Part shown: positions 15,543-32,654 of the stretch, piece after piece
Layout: each line of letters starts with the position of its first letter
How positions within the stretch are numbered: the first letter of the stretch is position 1
NCBI GenBank assembly: GCA_050173015.1
Contig: JBFXLE010000003.1
Span: forward strand, 128,001 to 192,000
Source: Calditrichaceae bacterium
GTDB lineage: Bacteria > Calditrichota > Calditrichia > Calditrichales > JBFXGD01
Direction of reading: 5' to 3'
DNA length: 64,000 nucleotides
The notes under the pieces: model-generated
The model's input: only the letters and a program-made list of their open reading frames with translations
The model's database searches: none
Told to the model about the DNA's origin: nothing
Translations under genes and position numbers: made by a program

Positions 15543-17237
15543 ATGACCAGTAATAAATTTATTTTTACCATTTTGCTTGGAGTTATGATGATCTCAGTTT
15601 CCTGCTCTGAAAAACATGAATATCCTTTATCGGAAGAAGGCTTTAATAATTACACCATCAACTTTGAGAAAAAGCTGGCTCCCCTTGAGAACAGGAATAA
15701 TCTTGCCGAATGGAATGCGTATATCACCGGGCAGGATAAATATTTTAAAGAAGCGGATGAGGCATCGCTACAAATTGACGCTCTGTATCAAAACCGGAAA
15801 CACTTTGCGTATATCAAAGAACTGAAAGAAAAAAATCTTGTAAAAGATGAATTATTAAAACGCCAACTGGATGTTCTCTACTATTCCTTTCTCAAGAAGC
15901 AGGGAAATCCCGAACTGAATAAGGAGATAACCGAACTTACCAGTGAAATTTCTCAGAAATTTATCAACTTCCGGGCTGAATATGACGGAAAAACAGTGAC
16001 GGATAATCAAATAACTGAACTGCTTAAATCCGAGAAAAATTTACAAAAGCGTGAAGGCGCGTGGCGCGCTCAGAAAGAAGCAGGGAAATTAATCGCCGCT
16101 GATCTTCAGAAGCTGGTCAAATTGAGAAACAAAATGGCGGCGGAGCTCGGATTCAGCAATTATTATGAATTGGCGCTGATGAGTAAAGAGCAAGACCCCG
16201 CGGATGTAAAACATACTTTCGAAGAACTTGCCGCTTTAACGGACGAACCATTCAGAGCCGTTCACGACGAGGTCGAGACGGTTCTCAGCAAAAGGTTCGG
16301 CATCGCTAAAGATGAATTGCGTCCGTGGCATTATGAAGATTTATTTTCACAGGAAGCTCCTGCCATCTATCAGGTAAATCTTGATACTTATTTTAAAAAT
16401 GTAGATATGCCGTCGCTCGCGGAAAATTATTACCGGAGTTTTGGCATGGATATTAAACCCATTCTGGCGGCCAGTGATCTATATGAAAAAGAAGGAAAAA
16501 ATCAGCATGCGTTCTCTTTTTGCATGGATCGGGGTCAGGACATCCGCGTACTTCTCAATATTGTCCCCAACCAGCGCTGGATGGACACCATGATGCATGA
16601 ATCCGGACACGCGGTATTTGATAAATATATAAATACGGAACTGCCATATTTGCTCCGTACTCCCGCCCACTCATTTACCACTGAAGGAATCGCCATGTTT
16701 TTCGGCGGTATGGCATCCAATCCGTTATGGATGAAGCAGGCGCTAAACATGAATGAAAATGAAATCGGTAAAATCAGAGAGACTATAAAACAGAGTGACC
16801 GCCTGGCGAAAATGATGTTCGCCCGCTGGTCTCTGGTCATGAAATTTTTTGAAGAGAAGATGTACGCTGACCCCGACCAGGACTTAAATAAATTATGGTG
16901 GGATCTTGTCGAACGTTATCAGTACATCACGCGGCCGGAGAACCTAAACGGAGGCGAATGGGCCTCAAAAGTTCACCTGATCGGTTATCCCGCGTATTAC
17001 CATAACTATCTATTGGGTGAGCTATTCGCCGCGCAGATAAAGCATACGGTGGCCGAAGAAGCATACGACCATGTTGATCCATCAGAAGTGACTTTCTGGG
17101 ATAATCCAAAGGCCGGGCAATTACTCAAGGATAAAGTTTTCATGCCGGGAAACCGCTGGTATTGGAATGAAATGATACAAAACGCGACCGGGGAAAAACT
17201 GACGGCAAAATATTTTGTCGCTACCTATATCGAATAA
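15543..17237 (+). CDS. Lipoprotein zinc metallopeptidase (M2/M3 gluzincin type)
   Basis: SD GGAGG before ATG 15543; lipobox-like VSC; HESGH, TEGIA, HL...PAYYHNY. Confidence 0.85.
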   Translation: MTSNKFIFTILLGVMMISVSCSEKHEYPLSEEGFNNYTINFEKKLAPLENRNNLAEWNAYITGQDKYFKEADEASLQIDALYQNRKHFAYIKELKEKNLVKDELLKRQLDVLYYSFLKKQGNPELNKEITELTSEISQKFINFRAEYDGKTVTDNQITELLKSEKNLQKREGAWRAQKEAGKLIAADLQKLVKLRNKMAAELGFSNYYELALMSKEQDPADVKHTFEELAALTDEPFRAVHDEVETVLSKRFGIAKDELRPWHYEDLFSQEAPAIYQVNLDTYFKNVDMPSLAENYYRSFGMDIKPILAASDLYEKEGKNQHAFSFCMDRGQDIRVLLNIVPNQRWMDTMMHESGHAVFDKYINTELPYLLRTPAHSFTTEGIAMFFGGMASNPLWMKQALNMNENEIGKIRETIKQSDRLAKMMFARWSLVMKFFEEKMYADPDQDLNKLWWDLVERYQYITRPENLNGGEWASKVHLIGYPAYYHNYLLGELFAAQIKHTVAEEAYDHVDPSEVTFWDNPKAGQLLKDKVFMPGNRWYWNEMIQNATGEKLTAKYFVATYIE

Positions 17238-17266
17238 CCGGCGATCATTTTAGAAATTACAGAATG

Positions 17267-17950
17267 TTAATAATCAGGTCGTTGATGGTATGGTATCGGG
17301 TCATCAGATCCGGCAATGCGGAATCCGCGAAGTCTTAACGCGCAACTGTCACAGACACCGCAGGCCTTATCTTCACTCTTATAGCAAGACCAGGTTTTAT
17401 CGAGAGGGGCTTTCAATTCAAGCCCCTTTTTCACAATTTCCCATTTTTTCAGGTCGATAATCGGGGTCATTATCTCAATATTCGTTTCCGGTTTTGTTCC
17501 CATCCGGATAACCTGATTAAATGCCTGAAAAAAATTGAGACGGCAATCGGGATAACCCGATGAATCTTCTTCCACCGCGCCTATAAAAATTTTCGTGGCT
17601 CCTGATACTTCAGCATAACTCGTTGCTATGGACAGTATATTCGCGTTACGAAATGGAACATAGGTAGAGGGAATTTGATCTGATTCAATATTGGCTTCGC
17701 TGACTTCCATATTCATATCGGTTAGACTTGATCCGCCGATTTGATTAAAAAATGCCGCGTCAACGAGAAGACGGTCCTTCACTCCAAAAAAATCCGCTAT
17801 TTCCTTAAAAGCCCTCAGTTCACGTTTTTCGGTTCTCTGACCGTAATTCAGATGCAGGAATGCGAGTTCATAGTTCAAATTGGCAATCGCGGCGGTCACA
17901 CAACTATCAAGCCCTCCCGAGACAAGAACAACTGCTTTCCCGCTTTTCAT
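17267..17950 (-). CDS. queC: 7-cyano-7-deazaguanine synthase
   Basis: SGGLDS, YVPFRN, YPDCR, WSCY...CGVCDSC. Confidence 0.96.
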
Positions 17951-18306
17951 CGATTTTCGTCCTGTTGCTCATTATCATGCACAGCCACAACAGTCGAATA
18001 TATGCCTCCGCGTATTGTAAATTCACCCGTTACCTTCATAAACCGGGGTTCGCAGGCCTTGACCATATCATCCAGAATTTCATTGATCACAGACTCGTAA
18101 AATATTCCTTTGTTTCTAAAATCGAGAAAATAATATTTTAATGATTTTAATTCGATACATATTTTATCCGGAATATATTCGATTGTGATGGTCCCAAAAT
18201 CCGGTAAGCCTGTTTTTGGACAAACAGATGTAAATTCTTCGTTAACATGGGTGATATAATAATCTCTGTTTGGAAATTGATTTTCAAATACTTCTATCTC
18301 TGCCAA
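17947..18306 (-). CDS. queF: preQ0 reductase (unimodular QueF)
   Basis: [15 protein letters not shown], QueF motif [14 protein letters not shown] start with SD AAGGAG. Confidence 0.93.
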
Positions 18307-20319: not shown

Positions 20320-21237
20320 TCAATTTTTTCGTTTCTGCCGGTAACGCGCGAACAACTGGCGGTCCAGTTTTTCCATATAGTGTTCCTGTTCAAGAACCAG
20401 ATCCGTTTCTTTTCGTCTGAACAATCGGCCATATTCCGCGACAAAGAGACAACGCATAAAATGACGATAGCGTTCATGTGGATAATATTTAACCTGTAAA
20501 ATACGTTCATTTCGTTCTTTATGTCGCATCACGATAAAAAAGTTCGGTTCATCTCTGAATATAAGTAGATCCTTAAACCATGATTCAAATACGGTCAACC
20601 AGGCGCTGATCTTTTTGTTTTTACGAATAGTAAATAAATCCTGGTAGATTGATTTTATTTGCGGTTCAAAAAAATCATCCTCAGTAAAATTTTCCGCGTT
20701 TAAAAAAAGATTTTGAGTAAGATAAATCATTGCTGAACGCGGATCATTTTTTGAATAATATGCCAGGCCCAGATAGCTTTTTGCCAGCATATCTTCAACA
20801 TTATCGGTGACGGCGCGATTAAGGCGCGGAATCGCTGAATCAGAATCATTGGAGAGATATTCAAATATACCGGATGGGAGTGTGTATTCTTTTTTTGCCT
20901 GTTCCTGAAAACGTTCCTGATAAATTTTCGTGAGCAGTTTTTCCAACAGCGCCAAAGCGGCTTTACCAATACGTTCAGACTGGTATCTTCCCCTTAGTCT
21001 TAACCAGACTTCAAACAAACCGGATAAATCATATATATCTGCGAAGGATTCTTCTTCCAAACTGAATATTATTTCATTGACAAACTTCCGCAGCTCCTCA
21101 TTTTCACCTTTATTTAAATAGAGCCTCCAATTTGTGATGGCTTCATCGATCTCAAAGTTGAGAAACAGCGCTTCCGCTTCCTTTAGAAGATATTCCGGTC
21201 CATCAATAGAAAAAAATTCTGACATAGCTGTTCTCAA
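20320..21237 (-). CDS. Hypothetical helical/TPR-like protein
   Basis: 305-aa ORF overlapping the GGDEF gene stop; TPR-like segment AKSYLGLAYYSKND...A. Confidence 0.6.
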   Translation of the reverse strand: MRTAMSEFFSIDGPEYLLKEAEALFLNFEIDEAITNWRLYLNKGENEELRKFVNEIIFSLEEESFADIYDLSGLFEVWLRLRGRYQSERIGKAALALLEKLLTKIYQERFQEQAKKEYTLPSGIFEYLSNDSDSAIPRLNRAVTDNVEDMLAKSYLGLAYYSKNDPRSAMIYLTQNLFLNAENFTEDDFFEPQIKSIYQDLFTIRKNKKISAWLTVFESWFKDLLIFRDEPNFFIVMRHKERNERILQVKYYPHERYRHFMRCLFVAEYGRLFRRKETDLVLEQEHYMEKLDRQLFARYRQKRKN

Positions 21238-22202
21238 CGATTAATTACAACAACCCGGTTGCGTCCGGAATTTTTTGCTTTATAAAGCGCTTCATCCACC
21301 TCATCAACCATTTCATCCAGACCTTCATAATCACCGGTTTCCACAACTCCCGCGCTGAAAGTCACCATTATTTCAAATCCATTCGAAGAAATAACCGTCG
21401 ATCGCACTTCATCCAGTATCCGGTCCACAAATTTGCTCATTTCTTTTAGACCGGTATTTGAAGAAATAAGCATAAATTCTTCACCGCCATACCTAAAAGC
21501 ATAATCAGTCTCATGCCTTAGATTTTTATTCAGAATCTCCGCAAATTTTATTAAAACCTCATCACCCGATTGATGGCCATAGGTATCGTTCACCTTCTTA
21601 AAATGATCGATATCCAAAAGAGCCATGGAAAATTCAATTCCACGCTCCGTATATCTCTGCCAGAGTTTTTTTAATATCATGTCACAAGAACGGCGGTTCA
21701 TCAAGTCCGTCAGTGAATCAGTACCCGCTTCCGTGCGGTACTTATTATTATCATCGATCAGATCTTCAGTGAATTTTGTCAATGCCTGTATTTTGTCGTT
21801 GGTGCTGCTTAGCTCCTGAAATCTTCTGTATGCTTTTCTCAAATAAGTTGCTATTTCATATTCATGATAAGGCAGCGTTAAAAAATAATCGATATGAGCT
21901 TTATTGATTGCCTGATGATAGATTTCCGTGTCCACCGAACAACTCATCATAAATCTCTGCACAAGATGATTGGCGCGCATAATGGATTTTAAAAAGTCGA
22001 TACCCTTTTTATCGTCATCACCAATGATGGCTATAGCGATACTGGCATCATTCACCCGAGGATTGTTTCGGATTCTGGCAAAGATATCTGCTTCCAGAAC
22101 TTCTATGCCCCATTCCAAAAGTTTATTTTTTAATTCCTCATAATATTGATTTTCGGTCTTGAAAAGAATAATACATTGAGGCAGTGTTTTTACAAGCGTC
22201 AT
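21234..22202 (-). CDS. Diguanylate cyclase with degenerate receiver-like N-terminus
   Basis: DSLTDLMNRR, DIDHFKKVNDTYGH, RYGGEEF, LYKAKNSGRN. Confidence 0.9.
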   Translation of the reverse strand: MTLVKTLPQCIILFKTENQYYEELKNKLLEWGIEVLEADIFARIRNNPRVNDASIAIAIIGDDDKKGIDFLKSIMRANHLVQRFMMSCSVDTEIYHQAINKAHIDYFLTLPYHEYEIATYLRKAYRRFQELSSTNDKIQALTKFTEDLIDDNNKYRTEAGTDSLTDLMNRRSCDMILKKLWQRYTERGIEFSMALLDIDHFKKVNDTYGHQSGDEVLIKFAEILNKNLRHETDYAFRYGGEEFMLISSNTGLKEMSKFVDRILDEVRSTVISSNGFEIMVTFSAGVVETGDYEGLDEMVDEVDEALYKAKNSGRNRVVVINR

Positions 22203-22262: not shown

Positions 22263-23891
<1,629 letters not shown>

Positions 23892-24638
23892 TTATTGTTT
23901 TTTCATTATCAATTTATTAACCCGCAGAAGATCTTCCGGAGTATCTACACTATGGGATTCATATTCTGTTTCTACCGTAAAAATTCTGTAACCGTTCTCA
24001 AGAACGCGAAGTTGTTCCAGACGTTCCGCTTTTTCCAAAGGACTTTCCCGCAACCCTGTAATTATTTTCAGAAATTCTTTCCGGTACGCATAGATACCGA
24101 TATGTTTATAATATTCATGACCGGCAAGCCAGTTTTCCTGCTTTTTTTCATCTCTGAGAAAAGGTATTACCGAACGAGTAAAATAAAGGGCGAAATGATG
24201 CTTATCCCTTACCACTCTCACTAAATTTGGATTAATCAGTTCATCGTTAGAAAGTATTTTCTTTATTGGTGTAGCCATCCTAATCTGATTATCATTGAAA
24301 ACATCCACCATTTTATCCAGCAGAACCGGTGAAATAAACGGCTCATCCCCCTGAAGGTTAATAATTACATCCACATTTTCCGTCTCGGTAGCAGCGGCAA
24401 CACGATCCGTACCCGATGGCAGGCCGGGATCTGTTAACACAGCTACTCCGCCGAATTTTTCGACAACAGATATAATATCAGGATGATCAGTGGCTACGAT
24501 CACACGGTCAATTTTTTTCGCCGCTGAAGCCCTTTCATAAACCCATTGGATCATTGGTTTTCCACCGATCAAAGCAAGAGGCTTCCCCGGGAGTCTGTTT
24601 GACGCGAATCGCGCGGGTATGACACAAATAGTTTTCAC
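23892..24638 (-). CDS. kdsB: 3-deoxy-manno-octulosonate cytidylyltransferase
   Basis: IPARFASNRLPGKPL, SGTDR, QGDEP, HIGIY, EQLR. Confidence 0.96.
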   Translation of the reverse strand: MKTICVIPARFASNRLPGKPLALIGGKPMIQWVYERASAAKKIDRVIVATDHPDIISVVEKFGGVAVLTDPGLPSGTDRVAAATETENVDVIINLQGDEPFISPVLLDKMVDVFNDNQIRMATPIKKILSNDELINPNLVRVVRDKHHFALYFTRSVIPFLRDEKKQENWLAGHEYYKHIGIYAYRKEFLKIITGLRESPLEKAERLEQLRVLENGYRIFTVETEYESHSVDTPEDLLRVNKLIMKKQ

Positions 24639-24925
24639 TTACTCACTACTTTCGGTACTCTGAAAAATTTATCTGTTTTGGCTGGTGCATTTTCCAGGGC
24701 TTTATCCTGCGACAGGGATTTTCCCAAAACATCTTCACGAAATACATTTGTAATATCCTGGCTGTGTGAAAGCGGTTCCACATTTTCAGTGTCCAGTTCA
24801 TCCAATTTTTCCACATAATCCAAAATCTGATTTATTTGTCCCGTGAACTTTTGTTTTTCATCTTCCGTTAAAGTCAGTCTTGCAAGATGAGCAATCTTTT
24901 CAACTTCCTGTGACGATACCGACAC
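24635..24925 (-). CDS. gatC: Asp/Glu-tRNA amidotransferase subunit C
   Basis: IAHLARL, ILDYVEKL.ELDT, FRED, F.VPKV. Confidence 0.93.
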   Translation of the reverse strand: MSVSSQEVEKIAHLARLTLTEDEKQKFTGQINQILDYVEKLDELDTENVEPLSHSQDITNVFREDVLGKSLSQDKALENAPAKTDKFFRVPKVVSK

Positions 24926-24933
24926 ATTGCCTC

Positions 24934-25338
24934 CTAATACTCTATTTTATATAATAAATTTAAACTGTTTTTTGTCCCTTTAAAGATTTTGGCGCTCTCG
25001 CCTTTTAAAAACAACCCCCTTGTGAGACGGTACTCCATACTGAGACTGTAATCATCTCTATTCATGGACAAAGATCGTTGAAAATTGAGATAAAGCCTGT
25101 CATCAAGATCTTTCCTTTTTAGAGAGACGTTTTTCTCCTTTACAGAAAAAACACCAAGCTTTTTCACAAATATCCTGACCCCGTCAAGATGATACTTTTG
25201 AAGCAATGAATCTATCTGAACGTCCTTTAAGATCCCTCGCGACTTTCTTGCCGATGTATCCTGAGCATTCCCCTCAACAGCGATACTAAGAAAAATCACC
25301 AACACGCATATTATTTTAAAAAGCCTGACCAAAGCCAA
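24934..25338 (-). CDS. Small secreted protein resembling the C-terminal beta-strands of TamB
   Basis: Likely TTG start at 25338 after GGGAG; signal peptide ending EGNA-QD; C-terminus DDRLYLNF...MEYRLTRGLFLKGES...LNLLYKIEY. Confidence 0.55.
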   Translation of the reverse strand: MALVRLFKIICVLVIFLSIAVEGNAQDTSARKSRGILKDVQIDSLLQKYHLDGVRIFVKKLGVFSVKEKNVSLKRKDLDDRLYLNFQRSLSMNRDDYSLSMEYRLTRGLFLKGESAKIFKGTKNSLNLLYKIEY

Positions 25339-26899
25339 AGTGTAATCTCCCGGGGCTGTTTTGATCAAAATCGGTTATTCTGACTCCGTAATCCAAACGA
25401 AATAATCCAAATCGTGAATGAACTCTCAACCCTAACCCCGTTGTATATTTTAAAGTATTTAATTTAATCATTTCTTCAGCAAGCCACAAATTTCCTGTAT
25501 CCATAAATAGCACAATATTTGTATTATAACTCAGATAATACCGCATTTCAATATTATCCACAAATGAGTAATATCCACCCTGCGCCGAACCGTCATCGTT
25601 CTTGGGTCCTACCGAGCTTTCCGAGTACCCTCTGAGACTTGTGGAACCTCCAAGGTACAATCGCATGTAGGATGGAAGCTCCTCCTGATTCCCGTAAAAG
25701 AACTGTCCGCTCACGGAGATTCTATTCGCCAGAACAAATTGACTGCCAATTAATAAATAACAACTTTGTTTTAAATCCACCTGACCATAGGTATTATCTC
25801 CCCCGAATACGGTGAAGGCATTTTTAAAACGGATTTCAAGATTCTGACCTTCGTATGGATCTAAATAATTATCACGGCTGTCATATGTATAAATTATATC
25901 GAGGCCCCGGTTTTCTTCCCTTCCGATATAATCTCTGAAAGTTTTATCATTTTCATCAAATTCAACCTCAAACAGGTTGTTTTTTTCAAATACTATATTA
26001 TATGAGATTTGACTTAGATCATTTATGAGATGGTGGAATCCAATGATCGATCTATATCTCTCGAATCCAAAATTAACTCCCTTTGGCCTGTCAGTGAGGT
26101 AAGAAATTGACCAGTCAAATCTGAGTTTGTAGGAATATAAAGCCGGATCGACGTATTTTCCGGTTATTTCCCCCTTTTTAAAATAAAGCCCGCCGGCATA
26201 ATCAAGGGCATGCAGCGCGGAAAAATTAAGCTGCTTTCCATAACCGTCAAAATTGCGATTCCCCCAACCGATAAAATTACGCCACCCGTCTTCCGTATCT
26301 ATTCCCGTACCCAGGTCAGTGTAAAATTTCTTTCTTTCTTTTACCGATACCTTCACGGATATGACCTGCTGTTCATGGTCATATCGATCAACTAAAACTT
26401 CAACATCATCAAAAAGGCCGTTTTTCATGAGCGCTACCTGGCTCGATAGAATTGATTTTTTTGTAAATGGACTGCCACTTTTAAATTTTAACCGGCCAAA
26501 AATGAATTCTTTGTTTACATGCTTATTGCCTTCAACGGTGATATTGCCAAATCTGAACAATTCACCTTTATCGATACTAAATACTACTCTCAAAGGGCTC
26601 TTATCTCCGGTTTTTATCAATTCGTATTCACAAATTGTTTCCAGAAAGCCTTCATCTTCATAGTATTCTTCTATTCTTCGGCAGTCTTCAATTAGAACTT
26701 CTTCTTTTAAATTGTCGCTAAACCTGCTTTTCAGAAGCGGGATAAGTTCTATCCGGTTAACATTTTCATCCCCGGCGAATAAGATCATTTTTTGACCATT
26801 CGATTCCTGAGCAATAAGTAATTTGAAGGAAAATACAATGACCAGGATGCAAAGCAGTGATTGCCTATTTACCATTGGTTTTTGGGATAATAGTGACAT
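25316..26899 (-). CDS. Omp85 (BamA/TamA) family outer membrane protein with about two POTRA domains
   Basis: Signal peptide, POTRA-like YYEDEGF and ITVEGN...L..NGLF, loop-6 motif GGSTSLRGY, C-terminal HFGFGQAF. Confidence 0.9.
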   Translation of the reverse strand: MSLLSQKPMVNRQSLLCILVIVFSFKLLIAQESNGQKMILFAGDENVNRIELIPLLKSRFSDNLKEEVLIEDCRRIEEYYEDEGFLETICEYELIKTGDKSPLRVVFSIDKGELFRFGNITVEGNKHVNKEFIFGRLKFKSGSPFTKKSILSSQVALMKNGLFDDVEVLVDRYDHEQQVISVKVSVKERKKFYTDLGTGIDTEDGWRNFIGWGNRNFDGYGKQLNFSALHALDYAGGLYFKKGEITGKYVDPALYSYKLRFDWSISYLTDRPKGVNFGFERYRSIIGFHHLINDLSQISYNIVFEKNNLFEVEFDENDKTFRDYIGREENRGLDIIYTYDSRDNYLDPYEGQNLEIRFKNAFTVFGGDNTYGQVDLKQSCYLLIGSQFVLANRISVSGQFFYGNQEELPSYMRLYLGGSTSLRGYSESSVGPKNDDGSAQGGYYSFVDNIEMRYYLSYNTNIVLFMDTGNLWLAEEMIKLNTLKYTTGLGLRVHSRFGLFRLDYGVRITDFDQNSPGRLHFGFGQAF

Positions 26900-26910
26900 C
26901 GATTTATCAT

Positions 26911-27912
26911 CTAAAATATTGATTGATTAAAAACTGATGAATATTCTTTAACCTGCTTGATGACATCATCCGCGTCCTGTCCTTCCAGAAAGTATGGCTG
27001 CCAGAGCCGAATTCCTATCGGCATAATCTGGGCGTGGTACTTTCCTTTTTTTGCAGGACTTATTAAAACTTTTAATACGGCTGATGTTTCGAAGGTTCGC
27101 GAATTGCCGCCAAAAATAAAATTCCCGAGAGAGTAAGCGATTACTTTTCCCTTGTACAATTCCACGCCCTGAAGCACGTGCGGATGATGACCGACAATCA
27201 GATCCGCGCCATAGTCAATGGATTTTCTCGCATAATATTTCTCACTTTCTTCGGGGTAATTCGCTTTTTCCAACCCCCAGTGAAAGTTGATGATAATATA
27301 ATCCACCTGATCCCTGATCTTTGCTATATCCTCTTTAATGTAAGCCAGATTACGCATAGCGGTCCCTGCATTTGTTTCTGTAGCGGGATGCGAATCACTA
27401 TGTGGTCCGGTACCGTAATAGGCGAGATAAGCCAGTTTTAATCCCCGAATATCAAATATAACCGGCTGTCTCGCTTCGGCGAGATTTCTACCCGCGCCAA
27501 CATGTTTTATCCCGACCGAATCCAATAATCCGATTGTATCAAAAATACCCGTATCCCCGTAATCGTACATATGATTATTGGCCAATGTAACAATATCAAC
27601 ACCTGATTCTTTTAACATTCCGGCATATTTAGGTAAAGCGCGGAATGTAAACTGCTTTTCAACCGGGTTGCCTCTAACCGTAAACGGACTCTCAAGATTG
27701 ATCATAAAAATATCAGCTTCACTCAAAGCCGTCAATTTGTTAAAAGGATAATCAAGCCTGTCGCCAACATGCTGCTCAAAATGATTTACAAGAGATACAT
27801 CACCTGTAAAATATAACACAATTTCACTGCTGTCAGTCTCATTTACCTGTGAAAAGACCGGGTTAAATAGAATACAAAGAACAGACATTGCCCAAAAAAG
27901 AAAATTCAACAT
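26911..27912 (-). CDS. CapA/PgsA-family metallophosphoesterase, exported
   Basis: Signal peptide, GDV, NLE, LANNH..DYG, HWG.E, GHHPHV, YSLGNF. Confidence 0.9.
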   Translation of the reverse strand: MLNFLFWAMSVLCILFNPVFSQVNETDSSEIVLYFTGDVSLVNHFEQHVGDRLDYPFNKLTALSEADIFMINLESPFTVRGNPVEKQFTFRALPKYAGMLKESGVDIVTLANNHMYDYGDTGIFDTIGLLDSVGIKHVGAGRNLAEARQPVIFDIRGLKLAYLAYYGTGPHSDSHPATETNAGTAMRNLAYIKEDIAKIRDQVDYIIINFHWGLEKANYPEESEKYYARKSIDYGADLIVGHHPHVLQGVELYKGKVIAYSLGNFIFGGNSRTFETSAVLKVLISPAKKGKYHAQIMPIGIRLWQPYFLEGQDADDVIKQVKEYSSVFNQSIF

Positions 27913-28265: not shown

Positions 28266-28478
28266 TTAGACATCTTCAAGAAGGTATCCGGCTGATGCAA
28301 CAGCCTCTTTGGCGGCTTCAACATTAAATACAAGCTCATCAGCCTCAAGATAGGCCATTCCGTCATCCAGATCGACATCCGCTCTAATTATGCCTTTTAC
28401 TCCTCTAAGCGCATCCGATACGGTTTTAACACAGTGATGACAAGTCATGCCTTTTACTTTAAAATTTATCTCTTTCAT
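28266..28478 (-). CDS. Heavy-metal (copper) chaperone, CopZ-like
   Basis: GMTCHHC motif, C-terminal AGY; 70 aa. Confidence 0.9.
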   Translation of the reverse strand: MKEINFKVKGMTCHHCVKTVSDALRGVKGIIRADVDLDDGMAYLEADELVFNVEAAKEAVASAGYLLEDV

Positions 28479-28530: not shown

Positions 28531-29481
28531 TTAATTTATCTCTTTTTTGACAACTCTTTCATTCAAAATCATATCATCAAAGTAATACGTCATCGGGTTA
28601 AGATGTTTTCCGTTATGCCTTACTTCATAATGGAGATGCGGCGCGGTTGAAATTCCGGTATTGCCCACTTCACCAATTTTATCTCCCCGTTTTACCTTCT
28701 GTCCTGATCGCACTACTATTTTATTTAAATGCCCATAGCCCGTTTCGAATCCGTAATGATGATCAATCATCACCATATTCCCATAACCGCCATTCATTCC
28801 CGCGAACCGTATGACACCGTCCGCTGAAGCATAAACCGGTGTACCCTTTGGAGCGGAGAAATCAAGTCCGTCGTGATGACGGTAAACCCGGTTAATCGGG
28901 TGAAGACGCATACCGAATTTACTTGAGATAACCGAATGCAAAACCGGTTTGAGTGAAGGCATAAATTGAAGTGAGTCCTGCTTTTTCTGGAACGTACTCA
29001 TTAATTCTCTATAACTATCCAATTCAAGCTGAACACCTCTCTCCAGTTTTGCCAGCTCTGCAAATTGGGTGCTTAGTTCAACATTTTCATCGAAACCGGA
29101 TATTTCATCACCAAAATCATAATCAAAATTGGAACCACCTATACCAACGTTTCTGATATCGGCATTAATTTCATCAAGTCCTATAACGATTCTAAGTTCA
29201 TCATCATTTTTGACGATTTGATCCATTGTATTATTTATTTTACCAATTTTATCTTTCATTTCCCCTAATCGCGCTTGCAACACGGCATTAGTGCGTTCTA
29301 ACCGGTTGATTCTGGAGTTATGACTAAAATCTATTAAGAAGTCTAATCCAAACTTTCCGGCAACAACGAAGGTAACTAAAAAGATAGAAATGTAAACTGT
29401 AAGCTTCAGACGAGATATTTTGATTTCTTTTACTTTTGCTTGATCTCGCGATACAAAAATCAGACGCGATTCATCTCTCAT
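28531..29481 (-). CDS. M23-family peptidase with N-terminal TM and coiled coil
   Basis: HDGLDF, YGHL, STAPHLHYEV. Confidence 0.92.
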   Translation of the reverse strand: MRDESRLIFVSRDQAKVKEIKISRLKLTVYISIFLVTFVVAGKFGLDFLIDFSHNSRINRLERTNAVLQARLGEMKDKIGKINNTMDQIVKNDDELRIVIGLDEINADIRNVGIGGSNFDYDFGDEISGFDENVELSTQFAELAKLERGVQLELDSYRELMSTFQKKQDSLQFMPSLKPVLHSVISSKFGMRLHPINRVYRHHDGLDFSAPKGTPVYASADGVIRFAGMNGGYGNMVMIDHHYGFETGYGHLNKIVVRSGQKVKRGDKIGEVGNTGISTAPHLHYEVRHNGKHLNPMTYYFDDMILNERVVKKEIN

Positions 29482-30611: not shown

Positions 30612-30932
30612 TCAATCACTCTTCTTGTTAACATTCGTTTTTTTAATGTTTTTTAGTTGATCCTGATACTTCTTTAAATCTAATTCCAGCACCCTAATCT
30701 CCTCTATGAGTCTGCTCATTTCTTCATCAGGAGCGGCGGTGGGGTTGTTTTCCTCAACCACTTTATGGTAAAGTCTTCCCCCCAATTCAATCAATTTCTC
30801 TTCGATCTCTTTCCGGATTCCAAGTATATCAATCTTTACTCTTCCGATTCGAGTATACTCGGCAGTCAGATCACTGGCTGATTGAAATCCTTCAATCAGT
30901 CCTTTTTTCAAATTTTCCCATAAACTTATCAT
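30612..30932 (-). CDS. Hypothetical coiled-coil protein
   Basis: 106 aa; start overlaps the upstream vertex gene stop (ATGA...); amphipathic N-terminus, ELGGRLY. Confidence 0.7.
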   Translation of the reverse strand: MISLWENLKKGLIEGFQSASDLTAEYTRIGRVKIDILGIRKEIEEKLIELGGRLYHKVVEENNPTAAPDEEMSRLIEEIRVLELDLKKYQDQLKNIKKTNVNKKSD

Positions 30933-31195
30933 TCTAGTTCTATCTTATCAACAATTCCGACTATAGAGGCATCCGACAATGCCGGTTTTTTTCTTAACGG
31001 AATTACCGCTTCGTAGGCGGTGATGAAATAAACAGTTTCCCCTACTCCGGCGCCAACTGTATCAACCGCGATGATCGGGCTTCCTGTATCCTGCCTATAA
31101 ATATCTATCGGCTGAATTATTTGCAACTTCAGCCCTTCAAGATTTTTATCTTTCTGAGTGGCCCAGATTGTACCAATTATACGCGCTAATTCCAT
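30929..31195 (-). CDS. EutN/CcmL-family microcompartment vertex protein (divergent copy)
   Basis: IIGTIWATQK, AVDTVGAGVGE, DASIVGIVD. Confidence 0.92.
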   Translation of the reverse strand: MELARIIGTIWATQKDKNLEGLKLQIIQPIDIYRQDTGSPIIAVDTVGAGVGETVYFITAYEAVIPLRKKPALSDASIVGIVDKIELE

Positions 31196-31197
31196 AA

Positions 31198-31470
31198 TTA
31201 ATGTTCTGTTAAATCCAGTTTATCAATGATGCCGGAAATCACCGCGTCAACAGGTTTCCCTTCAGTTAAGGCAGACTGACGGGCGGAACTTCCGGTAGTG
31301 ATGAGAACTATCTCGCCGGCTCCCGCTCCAACGCTGTCCGCCGCGACCACATAAGTGTTCTTTAAAGAAAAATCCAATTCCACGTGGCGGACAATTAACA
31401 ATTTTAATCCGACCAGTTTCTCGTCTTTCCGGGTAGCCCAGATTGTTCCTACAACTTTTCCGAGTATCAC
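31198..31470 (-). CDS. EutN/CcmL-family microcompartment vertex protein
   Basis: VVGTIWATRK, AADSVGAGAGE, GSSAR, DAVISGIID. Confidence 0.95.
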   Translation of the reverse strand: MILGKVVGTIWATRKDEKLVGLKLLIVRHVELDFSLKNTYVVAADSVGAGAGEIVLITTGSSARQSALTEGKPVDAVISGIIDKLDLTEH

Positions 31471-31484
31471 GCTATCCCCTGTCT

Positions 31485-32654
31485 CTAAATAATTTTATCA
31501 AGAAAACTTTTTCCAAATCCGGTTGACTCAACATTAAAATATTCCGCAAGAGTGGCTTGAAGATCAGCAAAGGATTCTCTAACTCCTATGTTCTGATCTT
31601 TTTTTAACGCCGGTCCAAATGCCACGACAGGAACATATTCCCGTGAATGATCCGTGCTTGTTGACGTCGGGTCATTCCCATGATCCGCTGTAAAAACTAC
31701 CAGATCATTTTCCTTTAATCCGGATTGAAAATCAGGCAACCAGGAATCAAACTCCTGCAATGCGCCATAAAATCCGCGCGGATTATTTCTATGTCCCCAA
31801 AGCATATCAAAATCGACCAGATTTGCCATTATTAAACCGGATCCTGTTTCTTTCATTTCATCCAGAATCGCCGCCATCCCCTCCGAATTTATCTTTGTGT
31901 TGATGCTTTTGGCGATGCCTGCTCTTGCATAAAGATCATTTATCTTACCAATCCCGACAGTAGGGATGCCTGCCTCTGTAAATATTTGATGCAATGTTTT
32001 CGAAAACGGTTCAAGAGAAAAATCTTTTCTATATTTGGTGCGGGCAAAATCATTTGCGCTCTTACCGGTAAAGGGTCTGGCAATCACTCTTGCCACAGCA
32101 TGATCACCGGTGAGCATATCTCTCGCGATCTGACACAACTCATACAATTTTTCAAGCGGGATAACCGAATCATGTGCCGCTATCTGAAAAACCGAATCGG
32201 CGGAAGTGTATACAATCGGCTTACCTGTCTTAATATGTTCTTCGCCAAGCTCCTTGATAATTTCAGTACCTGACGCGGGAAAGTTTCCAAGTATTTCGAG
32301 ACCGGTCAAGTTCGTGAATTTATCAATGACGTCTGCTGGAAACCCGTTCGGATAGGTTGGAAACGGCTCATCAAGGATCAATCCCGCCAGCTCCCAATGT
32401 CCTGTCGTTGAGTCTTTGCCGGGAGAGATTTCCGCCATTTTCCCGTAATTACCGGTAGCATCCAAATCCGATCGCAGTCCTTTTATTGGAAAAATTTTGC
32501 CCAATCCCAGTTTTTCAAGGTTCGGTAATTGTAATCCGCCAACACTGTCGGCAAGGTTGCTTAATGTATTGCTTCCTTCATCGCCATAACTTCCCGCGTC
32601 TGGAAGCTCACCGATACCCACCCCGTCAAGAATAATTACAATCGCCCGTTTCAT
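31485..32654 (-). CDS. deoB: Phosphopentomutase
   Basis: LDGVGIG, GKDSTTGHWE, YTSADSVFQ, RVIARPF, DFDMLWGHR, TADHGNDP, DHSRE. Confidence 0.96.
   Translation of the reverse strand: MKRAIVIILDGVGIGELPDAGSYGDEGSNTLSNLADSVGGLQLPNLEKLGLGKIFPIKGLRSDLDATGNYGKMAEISPGKDSTTGHWELAGLILDEPFPTYPNGFPADVIDKFTNLTGLEILGNFPASGTEIIKELGEEHIKTGKPIVYTSADSVFQIAAHDSVIPLEKLYELCQIARDMLTGDHAVARVIARPFTGKSANDFARTKYRKDFSLEPFSKTLHQIFTEAGIPTVGIGKINDLYARAGIAKSINTKINSEGMAAILDEMKETGSGLIMANLVDFDMLWGHRNNPRGFYGALQEFDSWLPDFQSGLKENDLVVFTADHGNDPTSTSTDHSREYVPVVAFGPALKKDQNIGVRESFADLQATLAEYFNVESTGFGKSFLDKII

Follow-up and report, generated by a model that had tools for sequence, protein, structure and literature searches.

A conserved small gene beside Omp85 genes in two phyla encodes a probable bridge-less partner protein with weak similarity to the TamB C terminus

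A 64,000-nucleotide (nt) stretch of DNA from a Calditrichaceae bacterium (positions 128,001 to 192,000, forward strand, of contig JBFXLE010000003.1, assembly GCA_050173015.1; hereafter the window) carries on its minus strand two overlapping genes, one encoding an Omp85-family outer-membrane protein of 527 amino acids (aa; 25316..26899) and the other a predicted small exported protein of 134 aa (24934..25338). The small gene is conserved, under purifying selection and strictly linked to Omp85 genes, and its product shows a weak but specific similarity to the C-terminal tail of TamB, the partner of TamA in TAM (translocation and assembly module). Collectively, these data make it probable that the small protein, which has no bridge and resembles the TamB C terminus, is a hybrid-barrel partner of its Omp85 neighbor; we propose the docking of the small protein at barrel strand 1 and its functional role by analogy. 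The linkage in two phyla suggests a bridge-less relative of the TAM machine.

The small protein starts with a putative hydrophobic signal peptide ending in A-Q, continues with a conserved helical stretch and six amphipathic strands, and terminates in KIEY. Its open reading frame (ORF) offers two possible TTG start codons, at 25368 (144 aa) and at 25338 (134 aa). The latter is more likely, because a Shine-Dalgarno-like GGGAG, read from the sequence within the 3′ end of the Omp85 gene (25347..25351, minus strand), lies 8 nt 5′ of it, because the 134-aa form is the version reported by gene callers in protein databases (P0001, P0003), and because an internal ATG of the more distant ortholog in genome G004 aligns with it. 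From this start the overlap with the Omp85 gene is 23 nt (53 nt from 25368), and translation of the small gene may be coupled to that of the Omp85 gene. In the family alignment the N-terminal hydrophobic stretch is followed by the nearly invariant A-Q, and the protein is predicted to be exported with cleavage of its signal peptide. An earlier, sequence-only reading of this DNA had described the pair as a 527-aa Omp85 with about two POTRA domains and a GQAF end, overlapping an ORF of about 134 aa with a signal peptide and alternating strands, and as lacking a periplasmic bridge. The ORF, Pfam and the structural model agree on the first protein; the second has no bridge region and, in its 144-aa form (24934-25368), contains every motif quoted, and hydrophobic and polar residues alternate through its strands 3 to 6, up to a tyrosine as the last residue.

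The pair recurs in a congeneric genome (83% identity) and in a further family of the order (47%). Comparison of genomes G000 and G001 put the small gene's ratio of nonsynonymous to synonymous substitution rates (dN/dS) at 0.086 to 0.127, that of the Omp85 gene being 0.091. Thus, conserved in other genomes with a dN/dS of 0.09 to 0.13, the small gene is not a chance ORF. The junction of the two genes is covered, with neither indels nor joints, by contigs assembled from runs of other studies: X5 record 3 spans 24843-25825, the tiled X6 records 7-9 span 24600-26444 and X7 record 11 spans 25256-25607. Run X1 covers the whole stretch near-identically and may be the source, and X2 was excluded as a possible source. 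That the gene is a functionless, decaying remnant of tamB or the product of an assembly deletion might be supposed from its shortness and its tail motif only, and from genomes G002, G008 and G018, in which a similar Omp85 is followed by a full TamB of 1289-1315 aa. This explanation is refuted by the data and retains a negligible probability: the short gene recurs across two phyla, it is under purifying selection, it has its own predicted signal peptide and putative ribosome-binding site, and contigs from three other studies bridge the junction intact. The sequence-only reading had likewise argued against a remnant and had suggested looking for the short pair in other genomes and for a full tamB in this one; the pair was found in other Calditrichota and in a second phylum, and no full-length tamB occupies this locus in the relatives.

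An exhaustive search of 1.84 billion representatives with a five-sequence profile returned 13 proteins at E ≤ 0.001, 12 of them small (75-174 aa); a 721-aa tetratricopeptide-repeat protein (P0013) was regarded as a false positive. Two alignments were built from the family. The first, A2, has 13 rows and leaves out P0003 (a near copy of L012), P0010 (truncated, 75 aa), P0013 and P0014 (which diverges after about residue 55). With its profile the small gene was located in 6 of 86 Calditrichota genomes (G000, G001, G004, G073, G078 and G079). Two distant members led through a contig of a metagenome-assembled genome to genome G086, and the small gene is present in all 19 genomes of that genome's phylum, which database records of the family name Candidatus (Ca.) Edwardsbacteria. 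The second alignment, A7, has 20 rows, namely A2 without P0002 and P0008 but with L073 and sequences from 8 of the 18 other genomes of this phylum. A word-seeded search with A7 yielded 28 clusters of 89-144 aa, whose sources are Calditrichaceae or Ca. Edwardsbacteria; every source-given name among them is "hypothetical protein," and none of the 28 has a precomputed Pfam domain. A locus search with a three-row alignment found nothing in genome contigs and a single 1017-base contig in metagenome contigs. The small protein defines an unannotated family in two phyla, Calditrichota and Ca. Edwardsbacteria.

At every locus with an assembled flank, an Omp85-family gene adjoins the small gene, and three Omp85 architectures are represented. 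In all six Calditrichota carriers an Omp85 protein of 515-547 aa is encoded directly upstream. Across the 86 Calditrichota genomes, the profile of this two-POTRA Omp85 reaches 680-763 bits in precisely those 6 that carry the small gene and no more than 229 bits in any other, so that 6 genomes have both genes and 80 have neither. In G086 the small gene is preceded by a gene for a 603-aa Omp85 with three POTRA domains. In the remaining 18 of the 19 genomes of its phylum, the gene immediately downstream of the small gene and on the same strand encodes a fusion protein of 950-1027 aa (where complete), which was identified by a profile of three full-length copies. Pfam scans of two copies detected Peptidase_MA_2, PD40 repeats and a C-terminal Omp85 barrel, and no POTRA domain. 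The PD40 units are beta-propeller repeats, and examples of the fusion genes are L087:3522-6398 (plus strand) and its equivalents in L088, L090-L093 and L096. The Edwardsbacteria small gene itself follows an apt-like gene, a name given by reading.

The 527-aa protein begins with a putative signal peptide and ends in GQAF. In it, Pfam places the Omp85 barrel (PF01103) at residues 216-527 (E = 3.9e-36; 125.6 bits against a cut-off of 24 bits) and finds two POTRA stretches. An AlphaFold2 (AF2) model built from an 18-row alignment has a predicted local distance difference test (pLDDT) score of 84.5 and shows 16 strands after two POTRA units of beta-alpha-alpha-beta-beta topology (residues 37-110 and 116-188). 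The protein thus has the 16-strand barrel and at least one POTRA domain that characterize the Omp85 superfamily. Foldseek searches with the model returned TamA first (8us2_A at 6.3e-30, then 4c00) with BamA close behind, in a range from 1e-25 to 6e-30. The protein is neither of these. Against the TamA model NF047950 it scores 115 bits where the cut-off is 625, it has two rather than three POTRA domains, its neighbor is a 134-aa protein rather than a full-length TamB, and it falls in a separate clade; against the BamA model TIGR03303 it scores 171.4 bits where the cut-off is 297.15, it has two rather than five POTRA domains, and a 777-aa BamA is encoded elsewhere in the genome. In a quick maximum-likelihood tree of 37 Omp85 proteins, from which P0032 and other paralogs of the source genome were left out, 11 two-POTRA proteins form one clade (Shimodaira-Hasegawa-like approximate likelihood-ratio test [SH-aLRT] support of 100), apart from BamA and from three TamB-linked clades. 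Judged from this tree, the two-POTRA Omp85 forms a separate, old and well-supported clade, and such an age of the partner also speaks against a tamB remnant. The tree does not settle on a sister group of the clade (support 88), so that a derivation of the pair from one particular TamA-TamB operon is not claimed.

Full-length TamBs are encoded in addition to the small protein. The source genome (G000) has a 1352-aa TamB followed by a 629-aa Omp85 (C8:86285-92245) and a 1384-aa TamB followed by the 777-aa BamA with skp- and lpxD-like genes (C2:149989-156478). Each of the 41 genomes sampled from the order and class gave at least one TamB match, and most gave two. A third TamB is found in some relatives in either order, Omp85 then TamB in G002, G008 and G018, and TamB then Omp85 in G010, G025 and G073. 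Three full TamBs accompany the small gene in G073, G078 and G079, a further argument against its being a remnant, and one does so in G086. A search for AsmA (PF05170) in the source genome gave one sub-threshold match, to a 611-aa frame on C28, which is not evidence for a split TamB with its bridge elsewhere. The sequence-only reading had taken the pair for a TAM reduced to its docking segment, with a TamA-like Omp85. Both parts of that proposal need qualification: because the genome retains two complete TamB genes, each adjoining its own Omp85 gene (and some carriers retain three), the pair is not a reduced TAM, and the bit score and separate clade of the Omp85 set it apart from TamA.

Evidence that the small protein resembles the TamB C terminus comes from several profile comparisons. 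The window protein matches positions 325-381 of the 381 positions of the Pfam TamB model (PF04357/DUF490), with E values of 0.0022-0.0028. When family members were scanned singly, the TamB model was matched at E ≤ 1 by 9 of 13 and then by 15 of 20 members (best E, 1.4e-5), and TamB was the only one of the 24,736 Pfam models to be matched by more than one member; many families of outer-membrane barrels are among those models. In both members whose match was displayed (the window protein and L073), the match lies at the C-terminal end of the model. Alignment of the family profile with TamB C termini by hhalign gave a probability of 79.7% (E = 1.5e-5, 59 columns) for 7 Calditrichota sequences and 87.1% (E = 4e-6, 95 columns at mact 0.1) for 27, of which 20 were picked from TamB matches in the genome sample and 7 were those used earlier. 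With A7 the corresponding values were 85.7%, E = 5.5e-6 and a score of 39.0, compared with 0.2%, E = 0.3 and a score of 12.1 for the reversed template. Positions 42-132 of the family hidden Markov model (HMM) aligned to the last ~100 residues of one TamB at 18.9 bits, and the best-scoring single TamB tails for this HMM were of the G010/G025/G035 type. At the level of sequence, the likeness between the small protein and the final 60-100 TamB residues thus appears weak, consistent and specific.

According to the available text of a cryo-EM study, TamB's C-terminal domain comprises two helices and six strands, strand 6 being paired with strand 1 of TamA and strands 3-5 being luminal (PMC12800296). 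A preprint describes, in its accessible parts, a stable hybrid barrel in which six TamB strands are membrane-embedded, and proposes the name "Omp85-docking domain" for DUF490 (PMC13119328). The AF2 model of the small protein, built from 13 rows (mean pLDDT 67.6), consists of an N-terminal signal helix, two short helices (H39-48 and H52-61) and six strands between residues 63 and 130 (pLDDT 74-88). The predicted fold thus contains the two helices, six strands and aromatic last residue by which the domain is defined in the accessible text of the cryo-EM study (PMC12800296), the helices being of low pLDDT. The inner-membrane anchor and long beta-taco of TamB (>1000 aa) have no counterpart in the small protein (134 aa; relatives, 75-174 aa). 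As a separate observation, the nearest structural neighbors in the ESM Atlas are short-protein clusters labeled with the TamB C-terminal domain only, which may be fragments at contig ends or further free-standing tails. One is a 137-aa "TamB C-terminal domain-containing protein" mostly from Pseudomonadota (template-modeling score 0.61), a lead that may be a fragment, and another is a 217-aa cluster from Bacteroidota of which 44% carry PF04357.

Prediction of a complex between the Omp85 and the small protein gave a score of 0.56 (runs of 0.56, 0.59 and 0.55), which supports an interaction weakly; the best of three controls scored 0.00. At least 68% of contacts are shared between the runs, with a partner pLDDT of at least 55. 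The mark applied is passed by 116 of 157 solved complexes and by 2 of 215 mismatched pairs, and it is passed with a score of 0.60 or below by only 18 of the 157 solved complexes and by both passing mismatches, counts that hold only roughly here because custom alignments were used. Because the TamAB structure has been solved, the pass may reflect likeness to it.

Several observations weigh against a TamB-like partner. The window protein scores 17.4 bits (144-aa form) or 17.7 bits (134-aa form) against TamB, below the gathering cut-off of 22.4 bits, and no full-length TamB was recovered at E ≤ 0.001 in the exhaustive search. In searches of PDB sequences with family profiles, TamB was absent at E ≤ 10; the first gave no matches and a later one seven unrelated ones (E = 0.17-1.5), and phmmer and BLASTP found nothing significant in the two TamBs of the genome itself. 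The helical part of the model has a pLDDT of 37-53. Foldseek of the model against pdb gave no match at E ≤ 0.001 and no TamB chain. The best Z scores from VIA were 7.5 (wide) and 7.3 (second look), a level that is common according to the tool, and the rows of the fold search are generic up-and-down sheets and segments of transmembrane barrels, including a chain from the Chlamydomonas chloroplast outer-envelope translocon (TOC) at Z = 6.6. All outer-membrane beta-barrel proteins share amphipathic strands and an aromatic end. The complex prediction is a weak pass that gives no contacts, so that the pairing with strand 1 is a proposal by analogy.

With signals that are all weak and folds that are generic, the TamB likeness could be convergent and the small protein an unrelated accessory or regulatory factor that binds its Omp85 elsewhere, for example at the POTRA domains. 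We consider this unlikely. No Pfam family other than TamB recurs, the match sits at the very end of the TamB model in both members displayed, the hhalign score collapses when the template is reversed, and the predicted count of helices and strands equals that of TamB's C-terminal domain. The tail likeness perceived by the sequence-only reading hence stands in part: the family matches the extreme TamB C terminus in 15 of 20 members and at 86-87% in hhalign, but the window protein stays below the Pfam cut-off, and Escherichia coli TamB was not reached in the PDB.

A different objection is that the small protein is a client rather than a partner, that is, a mini outer-membrane protein that forms a homo-oligomeric barrel from six-strand units and for which the Omp85 is only the insertase. 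Six strands cannot close a barrel alone, and the best Foldseek row for the model was the Hia trimeric autotransporter anchor (E = 0.026, not significant), while the VIA rows are transmembrane-barrel segments. An aromatic C terminus would moreover fit a beta-signal readable by any Omp85. Two observations make such a dedicated substrate improbable, and in our judgment more so than the convergent factor. The sole recurrent family match is to the TamB C terminus, which the accessible text of both structural studies treats as a permanent partner and not as a substrate (PMC12800296, PMC13119328), and a strict one-to-one linkage with three Omp85 architectures is more typical of subunits.

We therefore favor a hybrid-barrel partner, for which the following mechanism can be envisaged. 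The two overlapping genes would encode a two-subunit outer-membrane module. One subunit would be the Omp85-family barrel with its two POTRA domains, and the other a Sec-exported protein of ~108 residues after cleavage, equivalent to the Omp85-docking C-terminal domain of TamB and devoid of the TamB inner-membrane anchor and periplasm-spanning beta-taco. Once exported, the small protein would cross the periplasm, and its last strand would be recognized by strand 1 of the cognate barrel, where it would remain as a hybrid-barrel partner, as the TamB C terminus does with TamA. Having no bridge, it could not carry lipid from the inner membrane and would therefore be a gate-holding or gate-modulating subunit of an Omp85 active in outer-membrane biogenesis. 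A wider proposal, which we put forward tentatively and with slightly less than even confidence, is that the TamB tail exists as a free-standing exported "Omp85 docking module" that serves at least three kinds of Omp85 (those with two POTRA domains, those with three and the peptidase-propeller-barrel fusion). Forming a hybrid barrel would in that case have a function of its own, in gate priming or holding or in a heteromeric pore, which could be uncoupled from lipid bridging and may predate the fusion of the TamB bridge to its tail.

The pair lies in a tight same-strand run in which, on the minus strand, the order is PGA_cap, Omp85, the small gene, gatC, a kdsB-like gene and a pyrG-like gene, no gap or overlap between neighbors exceeding 23 nt. 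The gene for the 333-aa PGA_cap (CapA-like) protein (26911..27912; Pfam PGA_cap, 2.2e-75) ends 11 nt upstream of the Omp85 start. Beginning 8 nt 3′ of the small gene is gatC (24635..24925, 96 aa; Pfam GatC, 2.4e-27), followed by the gene for a 248-aa CMP-Kdo synthetase of the CTP_transf_3 family (23892..24638; Pfam, 7.5e-60), for which kdsB is a reading of the family, and by that for a 536-aa pyrG-like CTP synthase (22263..23873; ORF named from reading its sequence), which ends the run. A kdsB-like gene is also found downstream of the pair in G001, G004 and G073, and the PGA_cap gene was not seen beside the pair in G073. In metagenome contig L047 the order small gene, gatC and kdsB is identical to that of the window; its upstream flank is unassembled.

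Further ORFs of the window, all on the minus strand, are named from reading their translations. They comprise an M23-type peptidase-like ORF (28531-29481), with a similar one near the pair in G073 and G078; a 70-aa CopZ-like heavy-metal-associated ORF with an MTCHHC motif (28266-28478); two adjoining ORFs of 88 and 90 aa resembling EutN/CcmL-type microcompartment vertex proteins (30929-31470) and, next to them, a phosphopentomutase-like ORF (31485-32654); and a 322-aa ORF (21234-22202) whose N-terminal half is receiver-like and whose C-terminal half is of the GGDEF type (GGEEF motif), probably a diguanylate cyclase. GC skew changes sign at ~16000-18000, being slightly positive before ~17 kb and -0.1 to -0.2 thereafter, with the cumulative skew peaking there. 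From ~19.5 kb on, the long ORFs of the listed stretch lie on the minus strand, and the switch could be a coding-strand bias.

In the TamB/DUF490/Omp85 and Calditrichota literature we found no description of a free-standing TamB tail, though supplementary DUF490 length tables, outside that scope, could list short proteins. Earlier surveys could not have seen this family, because, according to their accessible text, one discarded sequences of <200 aa (Heinz et al. 2015, PMC4494059) and a preprint reports only DUF490 length classes of at least 1250 aa (PMC13119328). The same preprint and the second structural study of 2026 disagree, in the parts available, on whether the hybrid barrel is one of two states or the only functional one, and their accounts of the barrel's contribution, apart from anchoring a lipid bridge, diverge (PMC12800296, PMC13119328). 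A natural system of tail and Omp85 only would let docking and gate opening be studied without a 1000-residue bridge, and it would test whether a TamB-like tail has a role of its own. If such a role is confirmed, it would provide an annotation for an envelope component that is conserved in two phyla about which little is known.

Comparison with known systems places the module close to, and yet apart from, the TAM. As in E. coli TamA-TamB, an Omp85 gene adjoins a gene whose product ends in amphipathic strands and an aromatic beta-signal. The match of the small protein covers the final ~57 positions of the Pfam TamB model, and its predicted two helices and six strands correspond to the DUF490 C-terminal domain as given in the accessible text of the cryo-EM study (PMC12800296), whereas its 134 aa contrast with the 1250-1700-aa length classes listed for bacterial DUF490 proteins in the available text of the preprint (PMC13119328). 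Unlike TamB, it has no inner-membrane anchor, chorein-like N terminus or beta-taco, and it possesses a cleavable-looking signal peptide of its own. The Omp85 partner of the small protein has two POTRA domains where TamA has three, and neither NCBIfam nor the tree classes it as TamA; in contrast to the TAM, the module is present in addition to full TamBs. In the chloroplast TOC, Toc75 and the membrane domain of Toc90/Toc159 make up a hybrid barrel. The proposed module would resemble Toc75 in that an Omp85-family barrel is kept open by strands of a separately encoded second protein; the TOC partner, however, is unrelated and much larger, the system is eukaryotic, and no sequence link to it emerged here. 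A TamB-BamA arrangement is described for non-proteobacterial diderms, such as Borrelia, in the accessible text of Heinz et al. 2015 (PMC4494059), and the 1384-aa TamB and 777-aa BamA of the source genome conform to it. There TamB is full length, whereas the small protein belongs to a gene family of its own, paired with other Omp85 paralogs. The TamB-BamA pair in this genome shows that TamB tails can serve different Omp85 partners.

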